Assembly: GCA_015069495.1 (NCBI GenBank)
Contig: SVIN01000006.1
Span: 10,847-74,846, forward strand
Source of the DNA: Clostridiales bacterium
GTDB lineage: Bacteria; Bacillota; Clostridia; Christensenellales; Borkfalkiaceae
Direction: 5' to 3'
Length of the DNA stretch: 64,000 nucleotides
Both the position numbers and the translations under genes were made by a program. The notes below the pieces were generated by a model. It was not told where the DNA came from. It did not search any database and saw nothing but the letters and a program-made list of their open reading frames with translations. Of this stretch, positions 12,287-51,439 are shown one piece after another; position 1 is the first letter of the stretch, and every line of letters starts with the position of its first letter.

Positions 12287-13170
12287 TGAAAAGAGAACAA
12301 AAAATTTCACAATTTGGATTTTTTAACGTAGACAAACCGTCGGGGATTGTTTCCTCGACGGTTGTCAACAAGATAAAATGGCTGTCGGGCGCACATTGCG
12401 GACACATGGGGACGCTTGACCCTTTGGCAAGCGGTGTTTTACCCGTAGGGGTTGGCAATGCCGCGCGCCTTTTCGATTACTTCTTGGAAAAGGAAAAAGA
12501 GTATATTGCCGAGTTTACTTTTGGGGTGGATTCGGATACGCTTGATTCGACGGGAAATCTCGTACAAGGGGGGCATGTACCCGATGAAACGGAAATTTCG
12601 GACGTATTGCCCACTTTTTTCGGGGATATTATGCAGGTTCCGCCTAAGTACAGCGCAAAGAACATCAACGGCCGCAGAGGGTATGATTTGGCGCGCGCAG
12701 GGATTGAATTTGAACTCGCGCCGAAAAAAGTGCATATCTATGGTATGGAACTTCTTGGTAAAAAAGAGGACAGTGCGGATACCTTCTTGGTGAAAATCCG
12801 TTGCGGCGGCGGTACGTATATTCGTTCGTTGGGGCGGGATATCGCGGCGGCATTGGGGACGAAAGCGGTGATGAGTGCGCTTCGCCGTACTCAAAGCGGT
12901 GTTTTTACCTTGCAAAAAGCGGTACCGTTTGACTTTTTCATGCACGACCCCGCAATCGAGGATATGGAAAAATACCTCATCCCGACCGACAGTGTATTGC
13001 CCTTTGAACGGTTAAACTTGACGGAAAAGGGTACAATGCGGATTTTACAAGGCAATTTTGTATCCGTGGACGTAGCGGATGGGTTGTATAAAATTTACGA
13101 CGGTGAGTCGTTTTACGGCTTGGCGGAAGTAACGGAAGGAAAGGCGAAAGCAAAGACAAAATTATGTTAA
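12286..13170 (+). CDS. truB: tRNA pseudouridine(55) synthase
   Basis: GHMGTLDPLASGVLPV catalytic Asp motif. Start overlaps the pheT stop (TAATGA). Confidence 0.93.
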   Translation: MKREQKISQFGFFNVDKPSGIVSSTVVNKIKWLSGAHCGHMGTLDPLASGVLPVGVGNAARLFDYFLEKEKEYIAEFTFGVDSDTLDSTGNLVQGGHVPDETEISDVLPTFFGDIMQVPPKYSAKNINGRRGYDLARAGIEFELAPKKVHIYGMELLGKKEDSADTFLVKIRCGGGTYIRSLGRDIAAALGTKAVMSALRRTQSGVFTLQKAVPFDFFMHDPAIEDMEKYLIPTDSVLPFERLNLTEKGTMRILQGNFVSVDVADGLYKIYDGESFYGLAEVTEGKAKAKTKLC

Positions 13171-14030
13171 AAACGGTATGGCTGACGGAACAACCGAATA
13201 CGGAAAAGGGCGTTGCGATGTTATTGGGCGGCTTTGACGGCTTGCACGCGGGGCATCGTAAGCTTTTATCGCGCGCAAAAAACAGCGGATGTTCGGTGGG
13301 GATTATGACCATTGTCGGCGGAAAGGAAAAGGGCTTGTTTACCTTTGCGGAGCGCGAGGAAATTTTTAAGACTGCTGGCGTGGATTTTGTTTTTGAGTTG
13401 CCGTTTGAGGAAATCAAGGACTTGTCACCGCGTGCGTTTTTACAGGTATTGGAAACGCAATTTACCCCTAAGTTGTTCGTTTGCGGGACGGATTTTCGTT
13501 TTGGCGCAAAAGCGGCGGGAACGGCGGAAATGTTAAAACAAAGCACCCAGGTATGCGTTGAAGTATTGCCGCTTGTGGAAATGAGCGGTGAAAAAGTTAG
13601 TTCGTCCTATATCAAAACGTTGTTGCAAAACGGAAAAGTGGAGCAAGCGCAGGAATTGTTGACCCATGCGTTTTTTTTGGTTGGAGAAGTATATGCTGAT
13701 CGAAAAATTGGTCGGACAATCGGGTTTCCGACGGCAAATATTTCTTACCCCATAGGTAAATATCCCTTAAAAATTGGGGTTTACGAAACGCGGGTTTGTG
13801 TGGATGGTAAAACGTATAAAGGAATTACCAATTACGGCGCGCGCCCGACTTTTGCGGATGAAACGGTGGTGACGGAAACCTATTTGGACGGCTTTGACGG
13901 GGATTTGTACGGTAAGACGTTAAAGGTGGAATTTATCCGCTATCTTCGCGACGTGCGGAAATTCGACAGTATAGACGGCTTAAAAAAACAATTGGAAGAA
14001 GATTTGAGGAGAGTAAGAACAAATGATTAA
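13164..14030 (+). CDS. ribF: bifunctional riboflavin kinase / FMN adenylyltransferase
   Basis: GGFDGLHAGH, SSSYIKTLL and GFPTANI motifs. Confidence 0.93.
   Translation: MLKTVWLTEQPNTEKGVAMLLGGFDGLHAGHRKLLSRAKNSGCSVGIMTIVGGKEKGLFTFAEREEIFKTAGVDFVFELPFEEIKDLSPRAFLQVLETQFTPKLFVCGTDFRFGAKAAGTAEMLKQSTQVCVEVLPLVEMSGEKVSSSYIKTLLQNGKVEQAQELLTHAFFLVGEVYADRKIGRTIGFPTANISYPIGKYPLKIGVYETRVCVDGKTYKGITNYGARPTFADETVVTETYLDGFDGDLYGKTLKVEFIRYLRDVRKFDSIDGLKKQLEEDLRRVRTND
13546..13562 (+). repeat. dispersed motif copy inside ribF
   Basis: CCCAGGTATGCGTTGAA, read as TQVCVE. Confidence 0.6.
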
Positions 14031-14868
14031 ATTTGGACCGAGCGGGAATTGTGAAAGTTTCTACGCGGAAGGATATTCCCACACGGAAGAATCGGCAGCG
14101 TTTGTAAAAAAACGCGGGTTGGATTGTTTTGAATATTCCTTCGGACGCGGTGTACGCATGTCTGAGGATAAGGCGATCTCTATTGGTGAAGCTTTTACCA
14201 AAGAGGATGTGGAAATTTCCGCGCACGCGCCCTATTTTATCAACTTTGCAAACCCCGACGATGAAATGGCGGCAAAATCCTACGGCTACGTATTGGACAG
14301 CGCAAAGATGCTGAAACTGATGGGCGGAAAGCGAGTGGTCTTTCACCCCGCGGCGCAGGGCAAAGCAAAGCGTGAAGAGGCGGTGGCTTTGACGGAAGAC
14401 CGCTTGAAAATTTTACGTGATTATATCTATCTCAATAATATGCAGGATATGATGTTCTGCCCTGAAACGATGGGTAAAATTGCCCAAATCGGCACCGTGG
14501 AAGAGGTGACCCGTTTCTGTAAAGTCGACCCCATATACACGCCTTGCGTAGATTTTGGACATATCAACGCGCGTGAGCAGGGTTCGCTTGTGACGGTGGA
14601 AGATTACAAGAGCCGTTTGGAATATATGATTGCGGAACTTGGGTTTGAACGCATGAAACATTTCCACGTACATTTCTCCAAAATTATGTACTCGGCAAAA
14701 GGGGAAATCAAGCACTTGACCTTTGCAGATGAAGTGTATGGACCGAACTTTGAACCTTTGGCGGTGGCTTTGAAAGAATTGGGGTTAGAACCTTACTTGG
14801 TCAGCGAATCAGCGGGCATGCAGGCGGAAGAAGCCGAAATTATGAAAAAAATCTACCAATCTTTGTAA
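14023..14868 (+). CDS. xylose-isomerase-like TIM-barrel protein (AP endonuclease family 2-like)
   Basis: 281 aa. HAPYFINFANPD and VVFHP patterns resemble the Nfo/TIM-barrel family. Exact function not determinable. Confidence 0.55.
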   Translation: MIKFGPSGNCESFYAEGYSHTEESAAFVKKRGLDCFEYSFGRGVRMSEDKAISIGEAFTKEDVEISAHAPYFINFANPDDEMAAKSYGYVLDSAKMLKLMGGKRVVFHPAAQGKAKREEAVALTEDRLKILRDYIYLNNMQDMMFCPETMGKIAQIGTVEEVTRFCKVDPIYTPCVDFGHINAREQGSLVTVEDYKSRLEYMIAELGFERMKHFHVHFSKIMYSAKGEIKHLTFADEVYGPNFEPLAVALKELGLEPYLVSESAGMQAEEAEIMKKIYQSL

Positions 14869-14871
14869 AAA

Positions 14872-14896
14872 CTCGCCCTTTAGGGCGGTTTTTTTA
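14872..14896 (+). terminator. rho-independent terminator
   Basis: CGCCC-TTTA-GGGCG hairpin followed by a T run. Confidence 0.75.
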
Positions 14897-14916
14897 TGGA
14901 AAATATCGTTGTATAC

Positions 14917-14945
14917 TTGACGAAAAGATTTTTTTTTGTTAAAAT
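14917..14945 (+). promoter_or_regulatory. sigma-70-type promoter of the M24 peptidase gene
   Basis: TTGACG (14917-14922), 17-nt spacer, TAAAAT (14940-14945). Confidence 0.5.
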
Positions 14946-14963
14946 AGTGATAAGAGGTAGTCT

Positions 14964-34299: not shown

Positions 34300-34322
34300 G
34301 GCCATACCATGTATGCGTTGAA
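34300..34322 (+). repeat. long variant (rarA|lipoprotein spacer)
   Basis: GGCCATACCATGTATGCGTTGAA. Confidence 0.7.
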
Positions 34323-34359
34323 ATATAAATTGAATCATTCCAATAAGGAGGGGAAAACT

Positions 34360-35886
34360 ATGAAAAAATCAGTGATTGCAACTATGTTGGCGAGCGTGTT
34401 GACGTTCGGTGTGCTTGGTACGGGTTGTCAAATTCACAACAGTTTTGACAGCCTTGTGCCCGATGCCTACGGCGAGTGGGAAAACCATTATATTTACCGC
34501 GGAAACGTACGCAGTAAAACGACGGGGGAAGAGAGTACATATTTGGTGACCGAAGTATCCGCGGACAAGGAAACCTATACGGTGGAATCTTGTTTGGATT
34601 CGGATATTTTAGGGGATGATTTGTATCTGTGCTTATCCTTGTCAGAGCCCGAAAGCAACGGTTTGGAAACGAAATACGCCTTGGTGTGTTACAATATCAA
34701 GAATAAAACGCAGGAAACTTTGATGTTGGATTATACCTATCAAGACGAGGCGGGAGGTACTTACACCTTTCATCCCTACTCGATTGATGCCCTGCATGGG
34801 GATGGGCAGATTGTTTTATACGGTCAGCGCGAAGAGGTTACGGTAGATAATAACGGACAAGAAAAAACAGAGTATATGGCAACTTACTTCACGTTTAGCT
34901 GTGAAACGATGAGCGGATATGAAACGCCGTTTATGTGGGAAGGTTATATGCGAAACGGCGGGTATTACTTTACCAAAACTATAGCGGATGAGGAAGCGCA
35001 GACCGCATCCGTATATTATGGCATGTGGGGGATGCAGGAACCTGTATTTATGGCGAGTGTGGATGGTTCGGATGGGAAGCGCACGGAAACGGAATTTGTG
35101 GAAAAGAATGGTGCAAGAGGTTTTCTTTTGACGACGTATTCCTCTAAGAATAATATGTATGGCACGCAGGAAGATTGTTTGCAGAGGATATCTTTTTATA
35201 ACCTTACTACGGCGACCTTGACAACCTTGTTTGAAGGGGATGATTTTGTGGATTGGGTGAACGTTCCCGACAATGAATATTTCCTGACTTACGCCTACGA
35301 TACGGTGACTTATACCCAAAAGAATAGTTTATTTGAGTCCGCACAAACGTATACGACAAGCGTGAAACAGAATTGTATTTTACGTCAAATCGTTTATTCA
35401 GCCAATGGCGCGGAGTTGAAAACGGCTTATGAATTTGATAACGGTGTGAGTGTGAACAATATACAAGGGATTGAAAAGGACGGCTGTTTGTACGCATCTG
35501 TCGAATGGTATGAAAATGCGGGGATTTTGAATAAAGGCGGGTATAAATCCCAACGCTCTAAAATGGATTTGTCGGTCGGTAAAATGACGGAGGCGGACAG
35601 TGAAGAATGGGCTACGAGCTCTGCACGCTGTTACGGTTCGTATGCATTATACAACAAACCTACGTGCGAAGGTTACGCTTATTATGTGGAAAGTGTGGCT
35701 TTAACCACGGTCAATAACAGCACGTCGTATGCGTATCGTTTGAAGCGGTTTGATTCGAATACGAAAAAGACGGACGTTATGCAACTGTGGAAGGGGATTG
35801 GTACGCAAGAGGGTGAAAAATATTCGGCGATGATGTGGAGAGATAACGGCGGAGATTATTCGAAGTTTGTCGTTCGAAATTACTAA
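34360..35886 (+). CDS. hypothetical lipoprotein
   Basis: MKKSVIATMLASVLTFGVLGTGC signal peptide with lipobox. AGGAGGGG SD. No family recognised. Confidence 0.6.
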   Translation: MKKSVIATMLASVLTFGVLGTGCQIHNSFDSLVPDAYGEWENHYIYRGNVRSKTTGEESTYLVTEVSADKETYTVESCLDSDILGDDLYLCLSLSEPESNGLETKYALVCYNIKNKTQETLMLDYTYQDEAGGTYTFHPYSIDALHGDGQIVLYGQREEVTVDNNGQEKTEYMATYFTFSCETMSGYETPFMWEGYMRNGGYYFTKTIADEEAQTASVYYGMWGMQEPVFMASVDGSDGKRTETEFVEKNGARGFLLTTYSSKNNMYGTQEDCLQRISFYNLTTATLTTLFEGDDFVDWVNVPDNEYFLTYAYDTVTYTQKNSLFESAQTYTTSVKQNCILRQIVYSANGAELKTAYEFDNGVSVNNIQGIEKDGCLYASVEWYENAGILNKGGYKSQRSKMDLSVGKMTEADSEEWATSSARCYGSYALYNKPTCEGYAYYVESVALTTVNNSTSYAYRLKRFDSNTKKTDVMQLWKGIGTQEGEKYSAMMWRDNGGDYSKFVVRNY

Positions 35887-36409: not shown

Positions 36410-37468
36410 ATGCACAATCAAACAACAAAACTCGTAAAGGTCGGCGGGGTTTCGCTCGGCGGCGGTTCGGGGGTAAAAATTCAATCGATGACTACGACGA
36501 AAACAGCGGATTTGGATGCGACCGTTTCACAGATTCACGCTTTGGAAAAGGCGGGTTGTGAAATCATCCGCGTGGCGGTTTCGGATGAGGCGGATGCTTT
36601 GGCGATTGCTTCGGTCAAGGAAAAAATACATATTCCGCTTGTGGCGGATATTCACTTTTCCCCCAAGCTTGCCGTGATGGCGATTGAAAGCGGGGCGGAT
36701 AAGGTGCGTATTAACCCTGGCAATATCGGCGGTGAAGCGGAAATCAAGTACGTTGCCGATTGCGTGAAAGCGCATAAAATCCCCGTGCGCGTCGGTTCGA
36801 ATACGGGCAGTATTGAAAAACATTTCCTTGCACAGTACGGTAAGAGTGCGAATGCCTTGGTGGAAAGCGCATTGTACAACGTTGGGATTTTGGAAAAATT
36901 CGGGGTCGACGATATCGTGATTTCGGTAAAGGCTTCGGATGTGAAATTGACGGTAGACGCGTACATGCTATTGGCAAAGCGTACTTCGTACCCCTTACAC
37001 CTTGGGGTGACGGAAGCGGGGACAACGGAAGCGGGGATTGTGAAAAGTGCGGTTGGCATCGGCAGTTTGTTGTTGAACGGTATCGGGGATACCATTCGTG
37101 TTTCTTTGACAGATAACCCCGTAAAGGAAGTCTATGCAGCGCAAAATATTTTACGTGCCTGCGGGTTAGATGAACAGTTTGTCGAGGTGGTTTCCTGCCC
37201 GACTTGCGGTCGGTGCGAATGGGAAAGCATGTCGCTTGCAGAAAAGGTAACGGACTTTGTGCGTCCCTATAAAAAATCAGCGAAAATTGCGGTGATGGGC
37301 TGTGTAGTCAATGGTCCGGGCGAGGCGAAAGACGCGGATTTGGGGATTGCGGGCGGTAAGGGTTCTTGCTTGATTTTTAAGAAAGGCGAGCCGTTTAAAA
37401 AGGTATCGGCGGATTGTGCCGAAGAAGAATTTTTTAAGGAAATAAGGTTGTTGTTGGATGGCGAGTAA
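36410..37468 (+). CDS. ispG: 4-hydroxy-3-methylbut-2-en-1-yl diphosphate synthase
   Basis: IQSMT, RINPGNIG and SCPTCGR motifs. Confidence 0.94.
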   Translation: MHNQTTKLVKVGGVSLGGGSGVKIQSMTTTKTADLDATVSQIHALEKAGCEIIRVAVSDEADALAIASVKEKIHIPLVADIHFSPKLAVMAIESGADKVRINPGNIGGEAEIKYVADCVKAHKIPVRVGSNTGSIEKHFLAQYGKSANALVESALYNVGILEKFGVDDIVISVKASDVKLTVDAYMLLAKRTSYPLHLGVTEAGTTEAGIVKSAVGIGSLLLNGIGDTIRVSLTDNPVKEVYAAQNILRACGLDEQFVEVVSCPTCGRCEWESMSLAEKVTDFVRPYKKSAKIAVMGCVVNGPGEAKDADLGIAGGKGSCLIFKKGEPFKKVSADCAEEEFFKEIRLLLDGE

Positions 37469-39035
37469 GTTAAATGAATATTTGGCGGAAATCCGTGCGT
37501 TGGATGGGTTGAAAAACGCAATTTTGCGCGGGATTCTCGTGTCAAAAAAAGAGAACGTGGCAGAGTTTTTTCTGGTGACAGACAAATCCTATACCACGCG
37601 TGAGGAAGCAGAGGCTCGGGCGATTTGTGAAAATTATCTTCCCGACGGTATTTCCGCGCGGATAAAAATCACCAAACGCGTGCCTGACCCTGAGGGGCTG
37701 AAAACCCGTATTTACGAGTATATCCAAAAGACATTCCCTGCGGCCTCCGCGTTCTTGGAAGAGGAGAATATCGAGGTGGAAATGCTGTCCAGCGGGGCGA
37801 ATTTTTACGTGGATATCGCCTCTGGCGAACAGAGCCTTTTTACGTCGGGGAAAATCTTGGACGAGGTAAGCAGGTATTTGACGAGTGTCTTCTGCGGTAG
37901 CTTTTACGGCAACGTTCGCATCGTGGAAAAAGCCGTGCCCGACGCGTCGATTTTGGAGGAAGTGCCCGAAACGGAAGAGGAAGAAATTCCGCACGTGGAA
38001 ATTCGTCGGTTTCCGATTTGCGATTATGAAAAAATCGACGGCTGTGACGAGCCGTTGAAATCGGCTGTTTACATGGCAGACTGCCAAGCGGTCGAGGGGA
38101 GTTATAACATTTGCGGTACAGTCACCTACATAGAGGAGATTGAGTATACCCGTCACAATGAAAAGACGGGCGAAGACGTGCAGAAAACGCGTTTTTCAGT
38201 GTCGTTGACGGACGGAACTTTGACCATGCGTACGACCTACTTTCCGAAAAAGGCGACAGTAGAAAAGATTCGTGATATTAAAATTGGCGATAGAATCGTG
38301 ATCAGCGGTGCGAATGAGGAATATAAAGGTTCGACCTCGTTCAAGGCATCAAAGATAAATTACGGCACGCCCCCCGATGGGTTTGAGCCTGTGGCAAGAA
38401 AGGGGAAACCCGTGCCCAAAGCCTACCACAACGTATTCCCCGAACCGTACGTGGATTATACGCAGGCGGGGTTATTTGACGATTTAAGCAAGCCTGCTGA
38501 TTTGAAAAACAACGTGTTCGTTGTATTTGACTTGGAAACAACGGGTTTGAACAACAACCCCGCGATGGGGCGTATGGATAGGATTATCGAGCTTGGCGCG
38601 GTGAAAATTATCAACGGTGAAATCGCGGAGAAGTTCTCCACCTTCGTTGCATGCAAGGAAAAGCTGTCCAATGAAATCATCAACTTGACAGGGATTCACG
38701 ATGAGGATTTGGTGGGCGCGCCCGAAGTGGAAAAGGTGCTTGCGGATTTTTACCGCTTTGCGGACGGAGCTTTTTTGGTCGGGCATAACGTGACGTTTGA
38801 CTACCGCTTCGTGCATTATTACGGGGAACAGAACGGCTACATGTTCGACCATAAAACGTATGATACGCTTGCGCTCGCGCAAGAAGTGTTGCGCGGTCAG
38901 CTTGCCAATTATAAGCTGAATACGGTGGCGGATTATTACGGATTGACGTTTAACCACCACCGCGCGTTCGATGATGCCAGCGTGACGGCGAAAGTGTTTA
39001 TCGAGTTGGTAAAAGCGAAAGGTCGGTTGGATTGA
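37458..39035 (+). CDS. PolC-like N-terminal/OB/DnaQ-type 3'-5' exonuclease protein with no PHP or polymerase domains
   Basis: Exo motifs VFDLETTGL, GHNVTFDYRF and HRAFDDA in the C-terminal third. An OB-like segment precedes them. Only 525 aa. Sits between ispG and rimP, where polC normally lies. Confidence 0.7.
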   Translation: MASKLNEYLAEIRALDGLKNAILRGILVSKKENVAEFFLVTDKSYTTREEAEARAICENYLPDGISARIKITKRVPDPEGLKTRIYEYIQKTFPAASAFLEEENIEVEMLSSGANFYVDIASGEQSLFTSGKILDEVSRYLTSVFCGSFYGNVRIVEKAVPDASILEEVPETEEEEIPHVEIRRFPICDYEKIDGCDEPLKSAVYMADCQAVEGSYNICGTVTYIEEIEYTRHNEKTGEDVQKTRFSVSLTDGTLTMRTTYFPKKATVEKIRDIKIGDRIVISGANEEYKGSTSFKASKINYGTPPDGFEPVARKGKPVPKAYHNVFPEPYVDYTQAGLFDDLSKPADLKNNVFVVFDLETTGLNNNPAMGRMDRIIELGAVKIINGEIAEKFSTFVACKEKLSNEIINLTGIHDEDLVGAPEVEKVLADFYRFADGAFLVGHNVTFDYRFVHYYGEQNGYMFDHKTYDTLALAQEVLRGQLANYKLNTVADYYGLTFNHHRAFDDASVTAKVFIELVKAKGRLD

Positions 39036-39148
39036 GTAATATGGCATTGTTCAAGCGAAGTGGCAACCCGACATTGTGTTGTGGTTAAATGATGGGCGTG
39101 GTTGATGAGATATTCCGCGACTTTTTTTAGAAAACCTATAAAAAATGC

Positions 39149-39177
39149 TTGCCTAATCGTTATAACTATGTTATAAT
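39149..39177 (+). promoter_or_regulatory. sigma-70-type promoter of the rimP-nusA-infB operon
   Basis: TTGCCT (39149-39154), 17-nt spacer, TATAAT (39172-39177). Confidence 0.55.
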
Positions 39178-39203
39178 AAGAACACTTAATAATGCTTTTT
39201 GTT

Positions 39204-39233
39204 ATTGAGAGTGGTCTGACGGCCACTCTCAAT
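39204..39233 (+). promoter_or_regulatory. leader hairpin upstream of rimP
   Basis: ATTGAGAGTGG-TCTGACGG-CCACTCTCAAT perfect 11-bp stem with no U tract, lying between the promoter and the rimP SD. Confidence 0.5.
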
Positions 39234-39256
39234 CTTCATGTATAGGGAGAAAAAAC

Positions 39257-39733
39257 ATGAAAATTAAACCCATCGAAGAAATTCAAGGCGCTCTGCAACC
39301 CATTGCGGACGAAATGTCTATCGAAATCGTGGAAATCGAATTTAAGCAGGGCAAGGAACCCGCTTTGACCGTCTATATCGACATTGACGGCGGGGTGGAT
39401 TTGGATACTTGTGAAAAATTCCACCGCGCAATCGACCCTGTTTTGGACGAGGTTGACCCCACGTTTGGCGCGCCTTACACCCTCAACGTGTCCAGCCCTG
39501 GTTTGGACAGACCTTTGAAGACCGACCGCGACTATGAAAAATGCATCGGTTTGAAGGTGGAAGTGAAGCTCTTCGCACCCATGCAGGGGAAAAAGTTTTT
39601 CGAAGCGACCTTGAAAGGCTATGATGAAAATTGCGTTTACCTCGAAGACAAAAACGGGGAAATGAAGCTTGAAAAAAGCAAAATTGCAAAGATTTGCCGT
39701 GCGATTGACTTCGCGGCTTTGGGACTTGCATAA
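39257..39733 (+). CDS. rimP: ribosome maturation factor RimP
   Basis: 158 aa. LNVSSPGLDRPLK signature. Precedes nusA. Confidence 0.92.
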   Translation: MKIKPIEEIQGALQPIADEMSIEIVEIEFKQGKEPALTVYIDIDGGVDLDTCEKFHRAIDPVLDEVDPTFGAPYTLNVSSPGLDRPLKTDRDYEKCIGLKVEVKLFAPMQGKKFFEATLKGYDENCVYLEDKNGEMKLEKSKIAKICRAIDFAALGLA

Positions 39734-41526: not shown

Positions 41527-44220
41527 ATGGCAAAAAAATATGAAAACGTGGAGAAAATCACCTCACTTTTGGATGATAAACAGCTTGGCGGTTTGCAAAA
41601 GCGTCTTTTATCCACGGAAAAAAGCCTTTCCGGCATCCTGAAAAAATTGGCGGATTTAGAGCTTGAAAAACAAGAACGCGAGGCGGCGGAAGCGGCTCGT
41701 ATCGCAGCGGAAGAAGCGGCACGCATCGCGGCTGAAGAAAAGGCAAAAGCGGAAGCGGCGGCAAAGGCAGCTGCAGAAGCGGAAAAGCCCAAGAAGAAAA
41801 CAACGAAAAAGAAAGAAGAAGCGGTAGAAACGCCCGCGGAAGCACCCGCGGCGGCAGAATCTGCCCCCGCAGAGGAAACGCCTGCAGTGGAATCGCCCGC
41901 ACCTCAGCCTGAAGCAAAACCTGAGGTGAAAGCGGAGGTAAAACCTGAGGCGAAACCCGTACAAGAAAAGAAAGCGGAAACAAAGCCCGAAGCACGTACG
42001 TTCGTACCTAAAACCGAAACTCGTACGGCGCCTGCTGCACCTCGCGCGCCTAGATATTTCCGCAACGGTCAAGAACAAGGCGTATACGTGGCAAAGCCCG
42101 GCGTAGAAAATAATACGTCCGCGCCTTCGACATTCCGTCCTCGTCCCGCAGGAGACAGACCGCAAAGACCTGCAGGCGACAGACCTTTCAACGGTCCTCG
42201 TCCCGCAGGAGACAGACCGCAAAGACCCGCGCCCAGCGCACCCGTTGCTGCGCCGATTGCGGCTCCTTCGAGAGATAGCAAAAACTTCTCCGCACCCGCG
42301 AAGAAGAAGACTTTTGAAAAGACTTACAGCGAAAAGAAACCCATGTCCAAGCGTTCGCTGATTAAACAGCAAGGTATGACGGTGGAAGATTTCGACGAAG
42401 ATAAGTCGGGATACAGAAAAGTTCGCTCGCCTAAAAAGCAAAAGCAACAAGAAATCCCCACCATCAAGATTGAACACGCAGTGGTTACTACGCAGGACAT
42501 TCCTTTGAAGGTCCTTTCCGAAAAGCTTGGCGTATCCGCAGTAGAAATCACCAAACGCCTTTTCAAAGAAGGTATCATGAAAGGTATCAACGATTCCATC
42601 GATTATGAAAACGCGTTGATGATTGCGATGGATTTGGGTATTGACCTTGAATACAAACCCGAAAAGACAGCAGAAGAAGTATTGATGGACAACGTAGCGG
42701 TAGAAGACGAAAGCAAGTTGATTACCCGCGCGCCCGTCGTTACCGTTATGGGTCACGTTGACCACGGTAAAACTTCCTTGCTTGACAAAATCCGTTCCAC
42801 CGCCGTTACGGCAGGGGAAGCGGGAGGTATTACGCAGAGCATCGGTGCTTATACGGTTACGGCGAAGGGTAAACAAATCACCTTCATTGATACCCCTGGT
42901 CACGCGGCGTTCACGGCAATGCGTGCGCGCGGTGCGTCCATTACGGACATCGTAATCCTTGTGGTTGCGGCGGACGACGGTATCATGCCTCAGACGGTAG
43001 AAGCCATCAACCACGCAAAAGCGGCAGACGTTCCTATCATCGTTGCGATGAATAAGATGGATAAATACGAAGTCAACCCCGACAGAGTAAAACAAGAATT
43101 GATGAAATACGAACTCGTTCCCGAAGAATGGGGCGGGGACACGATGTTGATTCCTATTTCCGCGAAGACGGGTATGGGTATTGACGAGTTGTTGGAATCG
43201 ATTAACTTGGTTGCAGAAATGCAAGAACTCAAGGCGAACCCCGACCGTCAAGCGAAAGGTACAATCATCGAAGCGAAACTTGACAAGGGTAAAGGTCCTG
43301 TGGCAAGCATTATCGTTCAAACGGGTACTTTGAAGACGGGCGATAACATTTTGTCGGGTACGACGATGGGTCGTGTTCGTGCAATGTTCGACGACAAGGG
43401 CAGACCTGTAAAATCCGCAGGTCCTTCCATGGCAGTATCCATTTTGGGCTTGGAAGACGTTCCCAACGCAGGCGACAGCATCATGGCGGTAGATCAAGCG
43501 CTCATGAAGCAGGTTCAGGAAGAAAGAAAGAACCGTCAGCGTGAAGAAATGATTAAACAGCAAAGCCGCGTTACCCTCGACGACGTATTCGCACAAGTGG
43601 AAGAAGGTAAAATCAAGAACCTCAACCTCATTGTTAAGGGCGACGTACAAGGCAGCGTAGAAGCAGTGAAACAATCGTTGGAAAAGATTTCCAACGAAGA
43701 AGTACGCGTAAAAGTTATCCACGCGGCGGCGGGTGCAATCAACGAAGGCGACGTTATGTTGGCGGACAGTGCAAACGCAATCATCATCGGCTTCAACGTT
43801 CGTCCCGATACCAAGGCGAAGAAACTTGCCGAACAGTCCAAGGTAGACGTACGCAGTTACCGTATCATTTACGAATTGCTTGACGATATGGAAGCGGCTC
43901 TTAAGGGTATGCTTGCACCCAAGCTTAAAGAAGTTCTTACGGGTAAATGCGAAGTTCGTCAGACGTTCAATATTACGGGCGTTGGTACAATTGCAGGTTG
44001 CTACGTTACGGATGGTAAAATTGTTCGCGGCGGTAAGTTGCGTATTTACCGTGAAGATATCATGATTTGCGAAGGCGGCGTGAAGCAGTTGAAACGTTTC
44101 AAGGATGACGTGAAAGAAGTTAACTACGGATACGAATGCGGTTGTGCTATTGAAGGCTTTAATGAAATCCGCGTAGGCGATATCATCGAATGTTATATCA
44201 CGGAGGAATTGAAGGCGTAA
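41527..44220 (+). CDS. infB: translation initiation factor IF-2
   Basis: 897 aa. GHVDHGKTSLLD, DTPGH and NKMD GTPase motifs. Low-complexity Ala/Glu/Pro-rich N-terminus. Confidence 0.97.
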   Translation: MAKKYENVEKITSLLDDKQLGGLQKRLLSTEKSLSGILKKLADLELEKQEREAAEAARIAAEEAARIAAEEKAKAEAAAKAAAEAEKPKKKTTKKKEEAVETPAEAPAAAESAPAEETPAVESPAPQPEAKPEVKAEVKPEAKPVQEKKAETKPEARTFVPKTETRTAPAAPRAPRYFRNGQEQGVYVAKPGVENNTSAPSTFRPRPAGDRPQRPAGDRPFNGPRPAGDRPQRPAPSAPVAAPIAAPSRDSKNFSAPAKKKTFEKTYSEKKPMSKRSLIKQQGMTVEDFDEDKSGYRKVRSPKKQKQQEIPTIKIEHAVVTTQDIPLKVLSEKLGVSAVEITKRLFKEGIMKGINDSIDYENALMIAMDLGIDLEYKPEKTAEEVLMDNVAVEDESKLITRAPVVTVMGHVDHGKTSLLDKIRSTAVTAGEAGGITQSIGAYTVTAKGKQITFIDTPGHAAFTAMRARGASITDIVILVVAADDGIMPQTVEAINHAKAADVPIIVAMNKMDKYEVNPDRVKQELMKYELVPEEWGGDTMLIPISAKTGMGIDELLESINLVAEMQELKANPDRQAKGTIIEAKLDKGKGPVASIIVQTGTLKTGDNILSGTTMGRVRAMFDDKGRPVKSAGPSMAVSILGLEDVPNAGDSIMAVDQALMKQVQEERKNRQREEMIKQQSRVTLDDVFAQVEEGKIKNLNLIVKGDVQGSVEAVKQSLEKISNEEVRVKVIHAAAGAINEGDVMLADSANAIIIGFNVRPDTKAKKLAEQSKVDVRSYRIIYELLDDMEAALKGMLAPKLKEVLTGKCEVRQTFNITGVGTIAGCYVTDGKIVRGGKLRIYREDIMICEGGVKQLKRFKDDVKEVNYGYECGCAIEGFNEIRVGDIIECYITEELKA
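42137..42227 (+). repeat. perfect 34-nt direct repeat (two copies, 57-nt period) inside infB
   Basis: GTCCTCGTCCCGCAGGAGACAGACCGCAAAGACC at 42137-42170 and 42194-42227, with a degenerate AGDRP unit between them. Encodes RPRPAGDRPQRP twice. Confidence 0.9.
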
Positions 44221-45790: not shown

Positions 45791-48700
45791 ATGGCGCAGA
45801 AAATTAGAAAATTGGAAGAAATTTTATCGATTACGGGAGAAGTTGCAAAGGTTATATCCTATGCTGATTATTTTGCCCGCCGTCCATTGTTTTCCACTTT
45901 ACAAATTCAAAACCAAGGCGACGAAACTATGGAAGGGTTGCGGTTGAGCGTACAAAACGCCAATGGTATGCTGTTGCCTTGCGAGAAGGAAGTGGACGTA
46001 CCGTTTGAAAGTACGGTCGAGGTGGATTTGGGCAGTATTTTATCCCCCTTGTATTTTTCCAATATTGAACAAGCGGCGGAAGAACGAATTGTCGTTACTT
46101 TACGCAAGGATAAAAAAATTATCGTCGAGCAACAGTATACCTTGACCGCTTTGCCTTTTGATTATTGGCAGGGTACGGACGGGGATGCGGAATTGCTCGC
46201 TTCGTTTGTCAGACCGAAATTGGGGGATTGCGCGCGCGTTCGTGCGGAGATTGCCGACCAATTGAAAAAGTGGAATACCCCCTGTGAATTGGGCGGGTAC
46301 GTTGGCAATGACAAAAACGCCGTACGCCGTATCATTGCGGCGTTGTACGCGGTGTTACGCCGTCATTCTATCTTGAAGAAGCCCTGCGTTTTGACCGAAC
46401 CCGTTTCCGCGGGTGCGGGTACGAAAATCTTGTCCGAACGCAAAGCAAGCGTTTTGGAAATTGCATTGTTCGCCTGCAGTTGCTTGGAAAATATGGGTTT
46501 GCATTCGGTATTGGTATTCGGGGAAAAAGAGGTATCCGTGGGTGTGTGGCTCTATGACAGCTGTTTCCTTGACACCGTGTCGGATGATATGCAACGCTTG
46601 GACGCGTACATTGCCGAAGGTATCAACAACGTAAGCTGTTTTGACGTGGAAGATTTGTTCTCGGATAAAAACGCAGCGTACTCCACCTCGGAAAATCATT
46701 TCCGTCAGAAATTGCAATCAGGGTATTACGAACGGTACGTAGACGTGCGCCGTTGCCGTATCGCATCGATTGCGCCCCTGCCTTTACGCGCGAAGAGCGT
46801 AAAAGGGTTTGAGGTGTTGTCGGAAGAGGATATGTCCCCCGATGCGGCACCGAGAGAATTGCGCGAAACGCAGAAACTCTCCTTAGATACGGAAGAAACG
46901 CGTGATAAGCAATGGGAACGCAGATTGTTGGATTTATCCATGAAAAACACTCTGCTGAACTTTAACCCTGCAAAGATGGCGGTGAAAATTCTTTCCGCCT
47001 CGTCGGATAAGACCTTGGATGCGTTGACCGAGCAGGATGAATTGGTGTTTGCGCCCGTCAGCGACGAAGTGAAGAAGATTTCGGATAAAAAGCAGGATTT
47101 CGGCATTGGCAATACAGCGAAACAAATGCGGGAATTGATTGATTTGGAAAATCAATCGGGGTTGGTACGCACCTACATGGATTCGACTGCTATGTTAGAA
47201 TCGTTGGGTCGTTTACAGCGTAAAAATAAAGAATCATACGAGGAATCGGGCGCGAAAATTTTGTACCTTTCGATGGGGTTTTTGAAGTGGTATTCGAAGA
47301 TGGATGGCGCAGAACATTACGCGCCGTTGGTGCTTTTACCCGTACAAATCAAACGTAGCAAAGGTGCAAGCGGTTATGCTTTGTCTGTGACGGACGAGGA
47401 CGTTTCCGTCAATACCACTTTGCTTGAATTTTTGAAGCAGGATTTCAACATCGATATCCGCGGTTTGGCGGATGCGATTCACGGGTTGAAGATTTCCGAA
47501 ATTCTCGCCATGGTGCGTGTGGAAATCGTCAAAATGCGTAATTGGGAAGTCATTGACGACGTATACCTTGCGGCGTTCTCCTTCGCGCGCTATCAAATGT
47601 GGAACGATCTTCGCCAAAACATCAATGAATTTTCGAAAAATAAAATCATCGAAGCGTTGTTGGATAATTCGATTTTGGCAGGCGGTTTAGAGGAAACGGC
47701 GAAAGAAGACGATGTTTCGCCTGAAACTACCCTTACTCCGTTGCCGGCGGACGCTTCGCAGTGGAGCGCGATCAACTTGTCGCAAAAGGGCAGAAGCTTC
47801 GTGTTGCACGGCCCCCCTGGTACGGGGAAATCGCAGACGATTACCAACATCATCGCAAACGCGTTAAACGATAACCGCAGCGTATTGTTCGTTGCGGAAA
47901 AACAAGCGGCTTTGTCTGTGGTTAAAAAACGTTTGGATAGTTTGGGGTTGGGAGATTTCTGTTTAGAATTACACTCGAATAAGACCAATAAAACCGAAGT
48001 GCTTCAAAAATTGCAAAACACCCTCGCGCTTGCGGGCGCGCAGGAGCAGGTGCGTTTGGATGAAACAGCGGTTTCTATCGCGCGTTTGAAAAATGAAATC
48101 GCCGAGCCGATGGAAGCGTTACACAAAAAACGCCGTTTGGGTGTGTCTGTGTATGAAGCGTTATTGATTTGCTTGCAAAACAAAAACGCCCCGACCATCA
48201 TGAATATCGAAAGCACTTTCTACGACGGTTTGACCAAGGAAAAAATGGACGAATACGAACGTATGATGGTGCAAGCGGCAGTTGCCGCGAAAGAATGCGG
48301 CGGCGTGCATAACACACCTTTTACCAACGTAAACGTGTCTGAATATAGCTTGGAATTGCGTGATTTAATCTATTGCTCGTCCGAGGTTATGATTGCGGAA
48401 ATTAAGCATTTGAAGAACTATATTGCGCTGTTCTTGGATTTGTACGGTCAAAATATCAGCACGCTGACTCGTAAGAAGTTGGAGAATCTCTACGAGATTG
48501 CCAAGCGTTTGCAAAGCGGTTCGCTGAATAAATATTTTAAGGAAAACGAAGAGGCGTTTTTCGCGTTCTTTAACGCCAACAGACGGTTGGATATCTGCCT
48601 TGAAAAGTATTTCGCATCCTGCAAAAAATTGGTGGATTTGGGCAAGGAATACAAGGAACTTGGCGAATGGCTTGATGCGGGTAAAACCGATTATGACAAG

Positions 48701-51439
48701 AATAAAACCATCAAAGGTATCGTGAAAAAGCTGAATAAGGTTTTGAAAGAGGATTTGGATGAAGCGACCTTGTTGCAACTGTTGAAAACAATCTACGATA
48801 TCTACGAATCAATGGATGCGATTCGTTCAAACACTTCGTTGGTACAATATTTCACCTTCGCGTTTGGCAGAGTGGACTTCTTCGATGCCCGCAGAAATTT
48901 CATGAAAGAGTTATACGATTTGCATCAGTTGTGCGCGTCCGTATTTATGGATTACAATGCGGACAGCTTCAACAGTATGTGTATGCGCGCGACGTGCGGG
49001 TATACTATGCCCGTCTTAAAAGGTTTGATGCGCTCGATGGGAAGTTTTAAGGAAGCAGAGAATAGTTTCCTTGAAATAACGCAAGCGGACAGAGAACGCT
49101 TGCCTGAGGAAGAAGTGTTGGAAATTTACACCTCGAAAGCGGGCGCGTTGATTGAAAACATTGACATGCTTGCCAACTGGTGTATGTATAAAAAGACAGC
49201 GCGCGCGTTGAACGATGCGGGTTTAACCTTCATCACCGATGCATTGGAAAACGGTTCGGTGACGGGTGAAAATATCGTGGAAAGCTTCGAAAAGAACGTT
49301 TATAAAAACTTCTTGCAGACGAATATTCCGCTCGACCCCGTATTGGCTCGTTTCTCGGCGGCAGTCTCCGAAGAAAAGGCGGAGAACTTGCGCGCGTTAA
49401 TGGATGAGTTTGCGAAACTTACCAAAGAACATATCCGTGCAAAATTGATTTCCCGCTTGCCTGTAGATACGGCGGACAGTACGCTTGCCTTGGAATTGGC
49501 AAATTTCCAACGTTTGACAAAGACCAATTTGCGCGGGGTGGGCTTACGCCGTCTGTTTGAAGATGCGCCCGAGCTGATGAAAACGCTTGCACCTTGTATG
49601 CTCATGAGTCCGATTACCGTATCGCAATATTTGCGCGCGGAAAACGGTTTGTTCGATTTGGTTATCTTTGACGAAGCCTCTCAAATTCCTACCGCGGAAG
49701 CGATTTGTTCGATTGCGCGCGGTAAGAGTTCGATTATCGTCGGCGATCCCAAACAGTTGCCTCCCACCGTATTCTTCAACAGCACTTACGTAGATGAAGA
49801 CAATTTGGAAAACGAGGATATGGAAAGTATTCTTGACGACTGCTTGACCATCAATATGGCGCAAAGGCATTTGACGTGGCATTATAGAAGTAAGCACGAA
49901 AGTTTGATTGCATTCTCTAATACTATGTACTATGAAAACAGATTGTGTACCTTCCCTTCGCCTGATACATTGGCAAGTAAAGTGCACTTCCAATACGTGG
50001 AAGATGGTATTTACGATCGCGGTGGTACGAAGCGTAATAAAGAGGAAGGGGATAAGTTGGTCAAAGAAGTATTGCGCCGTTTGACCGATCCCAAGGCGAG
50101 CAAGCAGAGTATGGGCGTCGTGACGTTTAGTACGGCGCAGAAGGAATATATCGAACGCAAACTCTCTGCGGCGATAGCCGAAAGAAAGTTGGAAAAAGTT
50201 GCATACGAACGCGAAGAGCCGCTGTTTGTCAAGAACCTTGAAAACGTGCAGGGGGACGAACGCGACGTGATTTTGTTCTCCGTTTGCTACGGCCCCGACC
50301 GTTTGGGCAGAATATCTTTGAATTTCGGGCCTTTGAATCAGTTTGGCGGTTGGCGCCGTTTGAACGTTGCCGTATCTCGTGCGCGTGAAGAAATGTTGGT
50401 CTTCTCGTCTATGACGGGTGCGATGATTGACGTTTCCAAGACGAAATCCCGCGGGGTAATGGGTTTGAAAGCCTTCCTTGAATTTGCACAGAAAGGCCGT
50501 ACTAACCTTGCAATTTCCTCGGCAAACGTTATGCGTAAAAAGGATGGTATCGGGAAGTATATCGCGGATGAGTTGGCTTCCTACGGGTATGATTGCCGTT
50601 ATGATGTGGGTGCGTCCGGGTTTAAGGTGGACGTTGCCGTGATTGACCCGAAGGATAGAAAACGCTTTATTTTGGCGATTATGTGCGATACGCCCAATCG
50701 TTTCTCGATTAAGGACAGAAACGTGTTGCAGTTGCAAACGCTTAAGCGCAACAACTGGAACGTAATGCGTATTTACTCGGTAAACTATTACAACAACCCT
50801 AAACGTGAAATTAAGAAAATCAAGGATTTGCTTGATAAGTTGACGGGCGCGGATAAAAAGGGCGGTGCGGAGCTTAACCGTTATAAAAAGACCTATAAGC
50901 AGGCAACGCTGACCAACATTGAAACAGACAGCGCATACGTCACCTCGGGTGAAAACGATAAGGATATCATCAATCGTTTGAAACTGATTGTGGCGGCGGA
51001 GGAACCCATTTCGACCGAATTCCTCATCCGCAGATGCTTAAACAGTTTGGGGATTACCAAATATGGTTCGAAGGTGGAAACACGCATGCAGGCGTTGATT
51101 GGCCTTTGCGGGTTTAAGTACGAGAAAGTGCTGGGTATGTCCTTCTATCATAAGACGGATAAATGTATCAGCTATGACCGCTACCGTGTGGAAGTAGGGG
51201 AAACGGTACGTAAAAATGAAGAGGATTATACTCCTTATGAAATTATCTCCATCGTGCGCGGTGCGTTAGAAGATAAGGTGGCGTTGTACATGGAAGAAAT
51301 TCAAACCATAGTTGCCTCTGTGTTCCGTGTGGTGAAACCGACGGACGGCTTTGCTTCCTACGTCAACGATTGCGTGACGTTGGGTGAAGAAAAGGGTTGG
51401 TTTGTGCGTTCCGTTTCGGATAGAATTTCTTTGGCGTAA
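45791..51439 (+). CDS. giant SF1 (Upf1-like) helicase with DUF4011-like region, PD-(D/E)xK (MTES_1575/DUF559-like) domain and DUF3320-like C-terminus; Hhe-like architecture
   Basis: 1882 aa. RLLDLSMKNTLLNF (DUF4011-type). Walker A GPPGTGKSQ at nt 47810-47836. Motif II FDEASQ, then GDPKQLPPT, QGDERDVILFS and NVAVSRAREEM. Next VDVAVIDP...LAIMCDT...NWNVMRIYS, a REase-like fold. Then a tail containing AAEEPIS..FLIRRC. Confidence 0.85.
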   Translation: MAQKIRKLEEILSITGEVAKVISYADYFARRPLFSTLQIQNQGDETMEGLRLSVQNANGMLLPCEKEVDVPFESTVEVDLGSILSPLYFSNIEQAAEERIVVTLRKDKKIIVEQQYTLTALPFDYWQGTDGDAELLASFVRPKLGDCARVRAEIADQLKKWNTPCELGGYVGNDKNAVRRIIAALYAVLRRHSILKKPCVLTEPVSAGAGTKILSERKASVLEIALFACSCLENMGLHSVLVFGEKEVSVGVWLYDSCFLDTVSDDMQRLDAYIAEGINNVSCFDVEDLFSDKNAAYSTSENHFRQKLQSGYYERYVDVRRCRIASIAPLPLRAKSVKGFEVLSEEDMSPDAAPRELRETQKLSLDTEETRDKQWERRLLDLSMKNTLLNFNPAKMAVKILSASSDKTLDALTEQDELVFAPVSDEVKKISDKKQDFGIGNTAKQMRELIDLENQSGLVRTYMDSTAMLESLGRLQRKNKESYEESGAKILYLSMGFLKWYSKMDGAEHYAPLVLLPVQIKRSKGASGYALSVTDEDVSVNTTLLEFLKQDFNIDIRGLADAIHGLKISEILAMVRVEIVKMRNWEVIDDVYLAAFSFARYQMWNDLRQNINEFSKNKIIEALLDNSILAGGLEETAKEDDVSPETTLTPLPADASQWSAINLSQKGRSFVLHGPPGTGKSQTITNIIANALNDNRSVLFVAEKQAALSVVKKRLDSLGLGDFCLELHSNKTNKTEVLQKLQNTLALAGAQEQVRLDETAVSIARLKNEIAEPMEALHKKRRLGVSVYEALLICLQNKNAPTIMNIESTFYDGLTKEKMDEYERMMVQAAVAAKECGGVHNTPFTNVNVSEYSLELRDLIYCSSEVMIAEIKHLKNYIALFLDLYGQNISTLTRKKLENLYEIAKRLQSGSLNKYFKENEEAFFAFFNANRRLDICLEKYFASCKKLVDLGKEYKELGEWLDAGKTDYDKNKTIKGIVKKLNKVLKEDLDEATLLQLLKTIYDIYESMDAIRSNTSLVQYFTFAFGRVDFFDARRNFMKELYDLHQLCASVFMDYNADSFNSMCMRATCGYTMPVLKGLMRSMGSFKEAENSFLEITQADRERLPEEEVLEIYTSKAGALIENIDMLANWCMYKKTARALNDAGLTFITDALENGSVTGENIVESFEKNVYKNFLQTNIPLDPVLARFSAAVSEEKAENLRALMDEFAKLTKEHIRAKLISRLPVDTADSTLALELANFQRLTKTNLRGVGLRRLFEDAPELMKTLAPCMLMSPITVSQYLRAENGLFDLVIFDEASQIPTAEAICSIARGKSSIIVGDPKQLPPTVFFNSTYVDEDNLENEDMESILDDCLTINMAQRHLTWHYRSKHESLIAFSNTMYYENRLCTFPSPDTLASKVHFQYVEDGIYDRGGTKRNKEEGDKLVKEVLRRLTDPKASKQSMGVVTFSTAQKEYIERKLSAAIAERKLEKVAYEREEPLFVKNLENVQGDERDVILFSVCYGPDRLGRISLNFGPLNQFGGWRRLNVAVSRAREEMLVFSSMTGAMIDVSKTKSRGVMGLKAFLEFAQKGRTNLAISSANVMRKKDGIGKYIADELASYGYDCRYDVGASGFKVDVAVIDPKDRKRFILAIMCDTPNRFSIKDRNVLQLQTLKRNNWNVMRIYSVNYYNNPKREIKKIKDLLDKLTGADKKGGAELNRYKKTYKQATLTNIETDSAYVTSGENDKDIINRLKLIVAAEEPISTEFLIRRCLNSLGITKYGSKVETRMQALIGLCGFKYEKVLGMSFYHKTDKCISYDRYRVEVGETVRKNEEDYTPYEIISIVRGALEDKVALYMEEIQTIVASVFRVVKPTDGFASYVNDCVTLGEEKGWFVRSVSDRISLA

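Follow-up and report, generated by a model that had tools for sequence, protein, structure and literature searches.

The window analysed here is a stretch of 64,000 nucleotides from a Clostridiales bacterium (assembly GCA_015069495.1, contig SVIN01000006.1, positions 10,847 to 74,846 of the forward strand), and this study deals with one open reading frame (ORF) in it, at 37458..39035 (+), whose 525-residue product is named X here. X is a member of a large and ancient protein family that has not been characterised to date and descends from the N-terminal part of PolC. The family retains the two KH-like subdomains of the PolC N-terminal domain (NTD), the OB domain and the DEDDh exonuclease; their order is that of PolC, and so is the place of the gene on the chromosome. 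Both halves of the PHP domain and the entire polymerase are gone.

PolC is the hallmark replicase of the Firmicutes and a clinical antibiotic target (ibezapolstat). We propose, with a probability of roughly 0.55, that X is a PolC-derived proofreading exonuclease of the replisome, which is tethered to the sliding clamp and acts in trans in the 3'-5' direction. Judged from its sequence, the family would represent a proofreading exonuclease of new architecture and new origin within the generic DnaQ/DEDDh superfamily.

Domain architecture and descent from PolC

The domains of X are listed in Table 1, together with the neighbouring features. The initial annotation had described the last third of the protein as a complete DnaQ-type exonuclease, preceded by an OB-like segment and a PolC-like N-terminal region, with neither PHP nor polymerase domains, and this description stands in all its parts. 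The exonuclease is matched by Pfam RNase_T (PF00929) over residues 355-514 with an E value of 2e-34 (119.9 bits, cut-off 24), and its motifs DLETTGL (358-364), HNVTFDYRF (443-451) and HHRAFDDA (500-507) are in place. The five DEDDh residues D358, E360, D448, H501 and D506 are invariant in 70 diverse members of the family, which are 25-52% identical to X; the family exonuclease is therefore predicted to be active. The chain ends directly after this domain, with the C-terminus ...LVKAKGRLD.

Table 1. Position of X, its predicted segments and the adjacent features in the window (pLDDT, predicted local distance difference test).
Feature	Position	Strand	Basis
X, whole gene: NTD, OB, linker and DEDDh exonuclease, 525 aa	37458..39035	+	ORF reading, homologues of like length
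NTD subdomain 1, aa 1-76, alpha-beta-beta-alpha-beta, KH-type-II-like	37458..37685	+	AlphaFold2 NTD-only model, pLDDT 90; hhalign to PolC columns 25-82, E 1.5e-4
NTD subdomain 2, aa 77-158, second alpha-beta-beta-alpha-beta module	37686..37931	+	AlphaFold2 NTD-only model; hhalign to PolC columns 95-172, E 3e-4
Acidic disordered connector, aa 159-183	37932..38006	+	9 D/E against 1 K/R; pLDDT <50 at 159-179; least conserved segment
OB-fold domain, aa 184-304, PolC OB homologue	38007..38369	+	hhalign E 1.7e-15; pLDDT 82-91
New linker, aa 305-352, in place of PolC PHP N-half	38370..38513	+	pLDDT <50 at 315-350
Linker motif VPKAYHNVFPEPY, aa 319-331, consensus VPxxYxxVFPxxY	38412..38450	+	alignment of 70 diverse members
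QAGLF, aa 336-340, candidate beta-clamp-binding pentapeptide	38463..38477	+	motif count in 87 members
DEDDh (DnaQ-type) 3'-5' exonuclease, aa 353-525; D358, E360, D448, H501, D506	38514..39032	+	Pfam, NCBIfam and PDB profile matches
ispG (GcpE), conserved neighbour upstream of X	36410..37468	+	Pfam GcpE E 3.5e-140
rimP, conserved neighbour downstream of X, opens rimP-nusA-ylxR-infB	39257..39733	+	Pfam RimP_N and RimP C-terminal domain
rimP leader: promoter-like site 39149-39177, stable hairpin 39206-39231	39149..39231	+	sequence pattern, z = -4.6

In NCBIfam the best matches of X are the PolC equivalogs, whose alignment is limited to the exonuclease part and whose scores lie far under the cut-offs (NF001688, 148.6 bits against 873; TIGR01405, 146.5 against 1043). 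The dnaQ equivalogs also score below their cut-offs (TIGR01406, 83 bits against 222.7; NF004316, 83.7 against 196), and the model TIGR00573 reaches 97.2 bits against 71.5. The exonuclease of PolC (2p1j) is matched with an E value of 1e-30 by X alone and of 2e-65 by the family profile. This profile finds the exonucleases of PolC, DnaQ and DinG at E values of 1e-31 to 1e-65, and RNase T at about 1e-12.

The OB domain carries the motifs ICGTVTYIEE (218-227) and IVISGANEEYKG (280-291) and forms a five-strand barrel in the AlphaFold model. On X itself the Pfam OB model (PF01336) aligns at 218-300 with 20.2 bits, below its cut-off of 27, and it matches 66 of the 70 diverse members, with a best E value of 1e-10. 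Pfam finds neither a PHP domain nor a polymerase core (DNA_pol3_alpha) in X.

The relationship with PolC was established by hhalign, using a profile of the 70 diverse members against one made from residues 1-700 of 51 PolCs. Residues 18-312 of X are collinear with PolC columns 25-348, with a probability of 99.3% and an E value of 3.7e-20, which contradicts the notion that the first 330 residues might be unrelated to PolC. The parts behave in the same way when they are compared separately: the whole NTD aligns to PolC 25-172 (E 6.9e-7), each NTD subdomain finds its own PolC counterpart, and the OB domain finds that of PolC. The linker 305-352, for its part, gives no match in hhalign to what lies between OB domain and exonuclease in PolC, and the N-half of the PHP domain is thus truly absent.

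Further, independent matches support this relationship. With the family profile, the OB domain of the Geobacillus kaustophilus PolC structure 3f2b is found at E 6e-4, and there is a weak match to the KH region of ribosomal protein uS3 (E about 1.5e-3). The top Foldseek match of the whole X model is Enterococcus faecium PolC (9qpc), over 405 aligned columns, while a model of the NTD alone returns weak and generic matches to tandem modules, namely the KH pair of archaeal NusA2, dual-BON proteins and ring-building motifs of type III secretion systems. Since the NTD is not resolved in any PolC structure, including 9QPC and 9QRN (PMC12592400), no direct comparison of NTD structures is possible.

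Among the PolCs used for comparison, five are short (1343-1356 aa; L039, L051, L063, L064 and L077), with an exonuclease that starts from about residue 323 and not about 430. These lack some 110 N-terminal residues, which are probably part of the NTD. One of them is labelled Christensenella sp. UBA7703 and is located after ispG.

A large and old family at the polC locus

A protein search retrieved more than 120 clusters of 72-100% identity to X, all of 522-526 aa and covering the whole query. With its N-terminal 345 residues alone as query, 225 clusters (50% level) were found among 1.84 billion representatives; the full-length members among them measure 500-528 aa at identities down to about 21-25%, and the best 150 include no protein longer than 528 aa. 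A scan with one genome per species gave at least 20 family loci in metagenome-assembled genomes (MAGs), with ORFs of 504-529 aa and one call over-extended to 596 aa (L011), as well as genuine PolC genes in other Firmicutes, at least about 58 in number and 1343-1642 aa in length. The MAGs that carry the family are labelled Clostridia, Candidatus Scatosoma, Candidatus Neoclostridium, 'Christensenella sp.' and Christensenellaceae. IspG identity among these genomes ranges from 80% down to 48%, a divergence as deep as the distance to Lachnospiraceae, and the family must therefore be old.

Database labels for the members read 'hypothetical protein' or '3'-5' exonuclease', and no description of a stand-alone protein with a PolC-derived NTD, OB domain and exonuclease was found in the literature searched. 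Two large polymerase surveys dropped polymerase-less fragments or took only canonical DnaQ into account. Homology-based annotation may thus read X as evidence of polC, or call it only 'hypothetical'. Both this family and the conserved motif in its new linker, which resembles a clamp-binding peptide, were missed by the initial annotation.

The chromosomal position is equally telling. ispG lies directly upstream of polC in 48 of 60 PolC-type loci, and in Clostridium (L058) and Peptoniphilus (L074) the whole series ispG-polC-rimP-nusA-ylxR-infB is present. At the 20 family loci, X has ispG directly upstream in 15 and rimP directly downstream in 16, with at least one of the two flanks present in 18, and this conservation includes members just 27-33% identical to X. 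Hence the proposal of the initial annotation that the ORF occupies the syntenic polC locus is borne out, and its reading of a 525-codon frame between ispG and rimP proves exact, both in the ORF itself and in the Pfam matches of the neighbours.

An ordinary DnaQ-family fusion, unrelated to PolC and placed at the polC locus by chance, is a very improbable explanation of these data and is already contradicted by them. Such a protein would fit with the exonuclease being alone above threshold in Pfam and NCBIfam, and with the PolC-specific Pfam models of the NTD, each of which matches a single member out of 70. It fits neither with the collinear hhalign match to the PolC NTD and OB domain, nor with the similarity of the OB domain to that of 3f2b, nor with a position that is kept at most family loci, including the members of 27-33% identity mentioned above.

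No polymerase was detected in the vicinity of X. The ORFs of the window include no C-family polymerase, and tblastn with four full-length PolCs against it gave matches confined to the exonuclease part of X. The large neighbouring ORFs encode EAL/GGDEF proteins, PurL, a GH43 protein, tRNA synthetases, RNase J and a phage portal. Beyond the window, about 1.7 kb on the left contain a DHQ synthase gene and part of an ORF that has no annotation, and about 8 kb on the right contain secG, gpmI, tpiA, pgk, thyA, folA and typA; neither extension holds a polymerase gene. The spacer between X and rimP, 221 bp long (39036-39256), is too small to hold one. With the same four PolC queries, no PolC homology beyond X was found within 10 kb on either side at the 20 family loci. 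The idea of a hidden polymerase remnant near X was accordingly rejected for the spacer, the window and the surroundings of the family loci, in agreement with the initial annotation, which had seen none nearby.

Damaged polC genes have a different appearance. Two of them occur in the comparison set, in a MAG of Anaerotignum (L035, 8813-13141), where an in-frame stop follows the exonuclease, and in one of Lachnospiraceae (L032, 8696-13184), where the frame shifts near residue 1010; these are either assembly errors or real pseudogenes. Both retain PolC homology kilobases downstream. The loci of X hold no such remnants, and X is therefore a clean and stable gene rather than a wreck.

An assembly collapse, or a polC pseudogene truncated in one contig, would explain the short length of the ORF at this locus and nothing more. 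This explanation is already refuted and its probability is close to nil: three independent metagenome contigs, which come from two JGI samples, encode a protein identical to X, hundreds of homologues share its length, the catalytic residues are invariant, the gene order is conserved, and the genuinely broken polC genes look different.

Some loci depart from the common arrangement. In Candidatus Scatosoma sp. MAG7883 (L004), an 1110-aa EAL and GGDEF gene (11628-14957, opposite strand) lies between X and rimP, the sole interruption of this junction seen. At L016 (2505-4517, +) a phage-portal gene stands upstream and rimP is not downstream, and at L018 and L019 both the ispG and rimP flanks are missing. 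Since flanks are lost wholly or in part at these last three loci, X has moved or the locus has been rearranged in some lineages.

Candidate clamp motif and proposed role

The linker that joins the OB domain straight to the exonuclease is predicted to be disordered, yet in the close clade its mean pairwise identity is 79%, compared with 68% for the OB domain and 63-75% for the NTD subdomains. Its consensus in the 70 diverse members is VPxxYxxVFPxxYxxxxQxx[LMF][FL], with P328 invariant and Y323 nearly so. Of 87 members, 74 have a pentapeptide Q-x-x-[LMIF]-[FLYM] at a fixed position, 12-32 residues ahead of exonuclease motif I; shuffled linkers give a mean count of 4.3 and at most 11. At the third position of the pentapeptide, N, D, G or S prevail, in keeping with the canonical QL[SD]LF. 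The QAGLF-type peptide of X resembles the bacterial beta-clamp-binding motif and is a candidate clamp binder.

In PolC, this type of motif is found at the other end of the protein. Of the 51 PolCs, 43 have a QLSLF-type motif within their last 12 residues, whereas X has no C-terminal motif. Timinskas et al. tabulate the clamp motif of PolC at the extreme C-terminus and give QITFF, QLDLF, QVSLF and QMSLL for clostridial PolC and DnaE1. Besides the shared NTD, OB domain, exonuclease and position after ispG and before rimP-nusA-infB, X thus differs from PolC (1343-1642 aa) by the loss of both PHP halves, palm, thumb, fingers, HhH motif and C-terminal clamp motif, and by the disordered linker with its QxxLF peptide.

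These features lead us to the following model, in which we infer the steps from the motif to clamp binding, and from there to proofreading for DnaE1. The QxxLF peptide, in the linker of about 45 residues that replaced the N-half of the PHP domain, would dock into the beta sliding clamp and stand in for the motif lost with the C-terminus of PolC. Docking would hold the exonuclease beside a polymerase working on the same clamp, and X could then proofread in trans, in a role analogous to that of epsilon in Escherichia coli. The most plausible partner would be DnaE1, which is reported from Clostridia. The OB domain may hold single-stranded or frayed DNA, and the retained NTD may keep whatever replisome contact this domain makes in PolC. 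In published surveys (PMC3919608), some Clostridia are reported to have DnaE1 only, and clostridial DnaE1 is reported with a conserved putative epsilon-binding surface.

The comparison with E. coli epsilon (DnaQ), which proofreads for DnaE1 as a stand-alone protein, is instructive. Both proteins are separate polypeptides with a DEDDh exonuclease, and the proposed role of X in trans is that of epsilon. In epsilon, a short peptide of the clamp-binding type, QTSMAF, follows the catalytic domain, whereas the candidate motif of X precedes it. Moreover, X has 350 additional N-terminal residues, those of the NTD and OB domain, and originates from PolC, while epsilon comes from the proteobacterial dnaQ lineage. 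Other proteins whose exonuclease belongs to the same DEDDh subfamily, and which the family profile matches at E 1e-31 to 1e-41, are the DinG-type exonuclease-helicases, the PRK07883 DEDD exonucleases, the Bacteroidetes DnaE1 with an N-terminal exonuclease and the Cas2-DEDDh fusions. None of these has the PolC NTD and OB domain in front or stands at the polC locus, as X does.

Several observations weigh against the proposed role or against the descent on which it is built. X has no C-terminal tail of the kind that epsilon uses to bind the PHP domain of alpha, which leaves the contact with the polymerase unexplained. In 13 of the 87 members the Q of the motif is absent, though an [LMVI]F core is kept. 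A complete PolC beside X in these genomes would make X redundant as a replicative proofreader. Furthermore, the marginal matches of the Pfam NTD models mean that the homology of the NTD rests on profile-profile comparison. Finally, a neighbour-joining tree of the exonucleases, a comparison already advised by the initial annotation, places the family as one clade inside the PolC exonucleases, with weak support: the bootstrap value is 10 out of 40 and one outgroup was used. The tree is therefore not decisive.

An RNA-directed role has also to be considered, in which the KH-like, OB and DEDDh domains would form a 3'-5' exoribonuclease of the RNase T or oligoribonuclease type, acting in RNA or ribosome maturation with its neighbours rimP, nusA, infB, rbfA and nrnA. 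The weak likeness of the NTD to the KH regions of uS3 and archaeal NusA2 speaks for it, as do the membership of RNase T and Orn in the DEDDh enzymes and the RNA and ribosome genes around X. This neighbourhood was however inherited from polC and therefore holds no functional information. The closest relatives of the exonuclease are DNA proofreaders, with RNase T far behind in E value, and a motif of the clamp-binding type would be sensible only on DNA. We consider such a role improbable.

A paralogue is a less remote alternative, though still an unlikely one. After an old duplication of polC, a polymerase copy, complete or devoid of exonuclease, would lie elsewhere in the genome, while the copy at the ancestral locus would have decayed to NTD, OB domain and exonuclease and would now serve as an accessory enzyme for repair or 3'-end processing, not as the main replicative proofreader. 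Clostridia and Negativicutes are known to include genomes with two PolCs as well as PolCs that lack the exonuclease insertion (PMC3919608), and DnaQ homologues that stand alone are frequent, with more than three per proteome (PMC12926913). The window also has a very strong gene co-orientation, which is classically linked to PolC genomes (published figures of 78% against 58%); gene-strand bias and AT skew were however judged too indirect to serve as a proxy for PolC.

On the other hand, no PolC-sized protein is present among the best 150 phmmer matches of the N-terminal region of the family, so that any paralogue would be ancient. A second X-like gene was found at none of the 60 PolC loci and, as a weak point, no assembly among the matches listed has both a family member and a PolC. 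To move an essential polymerase is also less parsimonious than an in-place reduction where DnaE1 can replicate alone. PolCs without exonuclease, described in Clostridia and Negativicutes such as Acidaminococcus (Timinskas et al. 2013), indicate that the exonuclease and polymerase modules can uncouple in evolution. They are the reverse product, having kept NTD, OB domain, PHP, Pol3 and HhH and lost the exonuclease, where X keeps NTD, OB domain and exonuclease and loses PHP and polymerase. As these PolCs retain their own NTD and OB domain, they argue against a paralogue, and the idea that X is their missing half was rejected.

Coming back to the clamp-tethered proofreader, we tentatively extend it, at somewhat less than even odds, to the whole clade: these uncultured Clostridia of gut and rumen, a deep group rich in species, may have dropped the PolC polymerase, replicate with DnaE1 alone, and keep the NTD-OB-exonuclease protein as a clamp-tethered proofreading subunit.

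Surroundings of X in the window and significance

The gene order around X is nrdR, ispG, X, rimP, nusA, ylxR, an L7Ae-like ORF, infB, rbfA and a DHH/DHHA1 gene. The ATG of X overlaps the stop codon of ispG by 11 nt, and the two genes are probably translationally coupled. Downstream, the spacer of about 220 bp with promoter and leader hairpin noted in the initial annotation is indeed found. The promoter-like site reads TTGCCT-17-TATAAT with an upstream TG (extended -10), and the hairpin is a perfect stem of 11 bp without a T-tract; a search of this leader in Rfam matched no family. Both elements are part of the downstream operon and not of X, and may regulate rimP-nusA-infB.

Three further ORFs of the window were looked at. 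A 1882-aa ORF (45791-51439, +), which lies between the DHH/DHHA1 gene and comEC and recurs on the sister contigs L001 and L002, encodes a giant helicase-nuclease. Its product has DUF4011, two superfamily 1 helicase halves (AAA_11/AAA_12) and, at the C-terminus, an MTES_1575 domain that resembles restriction endonucleases. A second ORF of 525 codons (34309-35886, +), inserted between mgsA and nrdR, has a signal peptide of the lipoprotein type (…LGTGC) and no Pfam match; with about 30% identity in the nearest other genome (L003) and no counterpart detected at the remaining family loci, it is a surface protein that evolves rapidly. The 688-aa ORF antisense to infB (41656-43722, -) is a compositional artefact and not a gene, the N-terminal region of infB being repeat-rich and purine-skewed.

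The retention of NTD, OB domain and exonuclease under long-term selection after the loss of the polymerase indicates that these modules form a functional unit, and provides a small and tractable protein for its study. To our knowledge, no function has been assigned to the N-terminal domain of PolC. If the clade has dropped the PolC polymerase and keeps X as its proofreading subunit, this would be the first evidence for a polymerase-independent function of the NTD-OB module, and the division of labour between alpha and epsilon would have been invented anew and independently, starting from PolC. Should the carriers of the family lack the PolC polymerase, a large group of Firmicutes from the gut would have a replisome based on DnaE1 alone, together with a proofreader of a new kind. 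The matter is relevant to how the clostridial system of PolC and DnaE1 divides the work, and to which commensals PolC inhibitors would spare.

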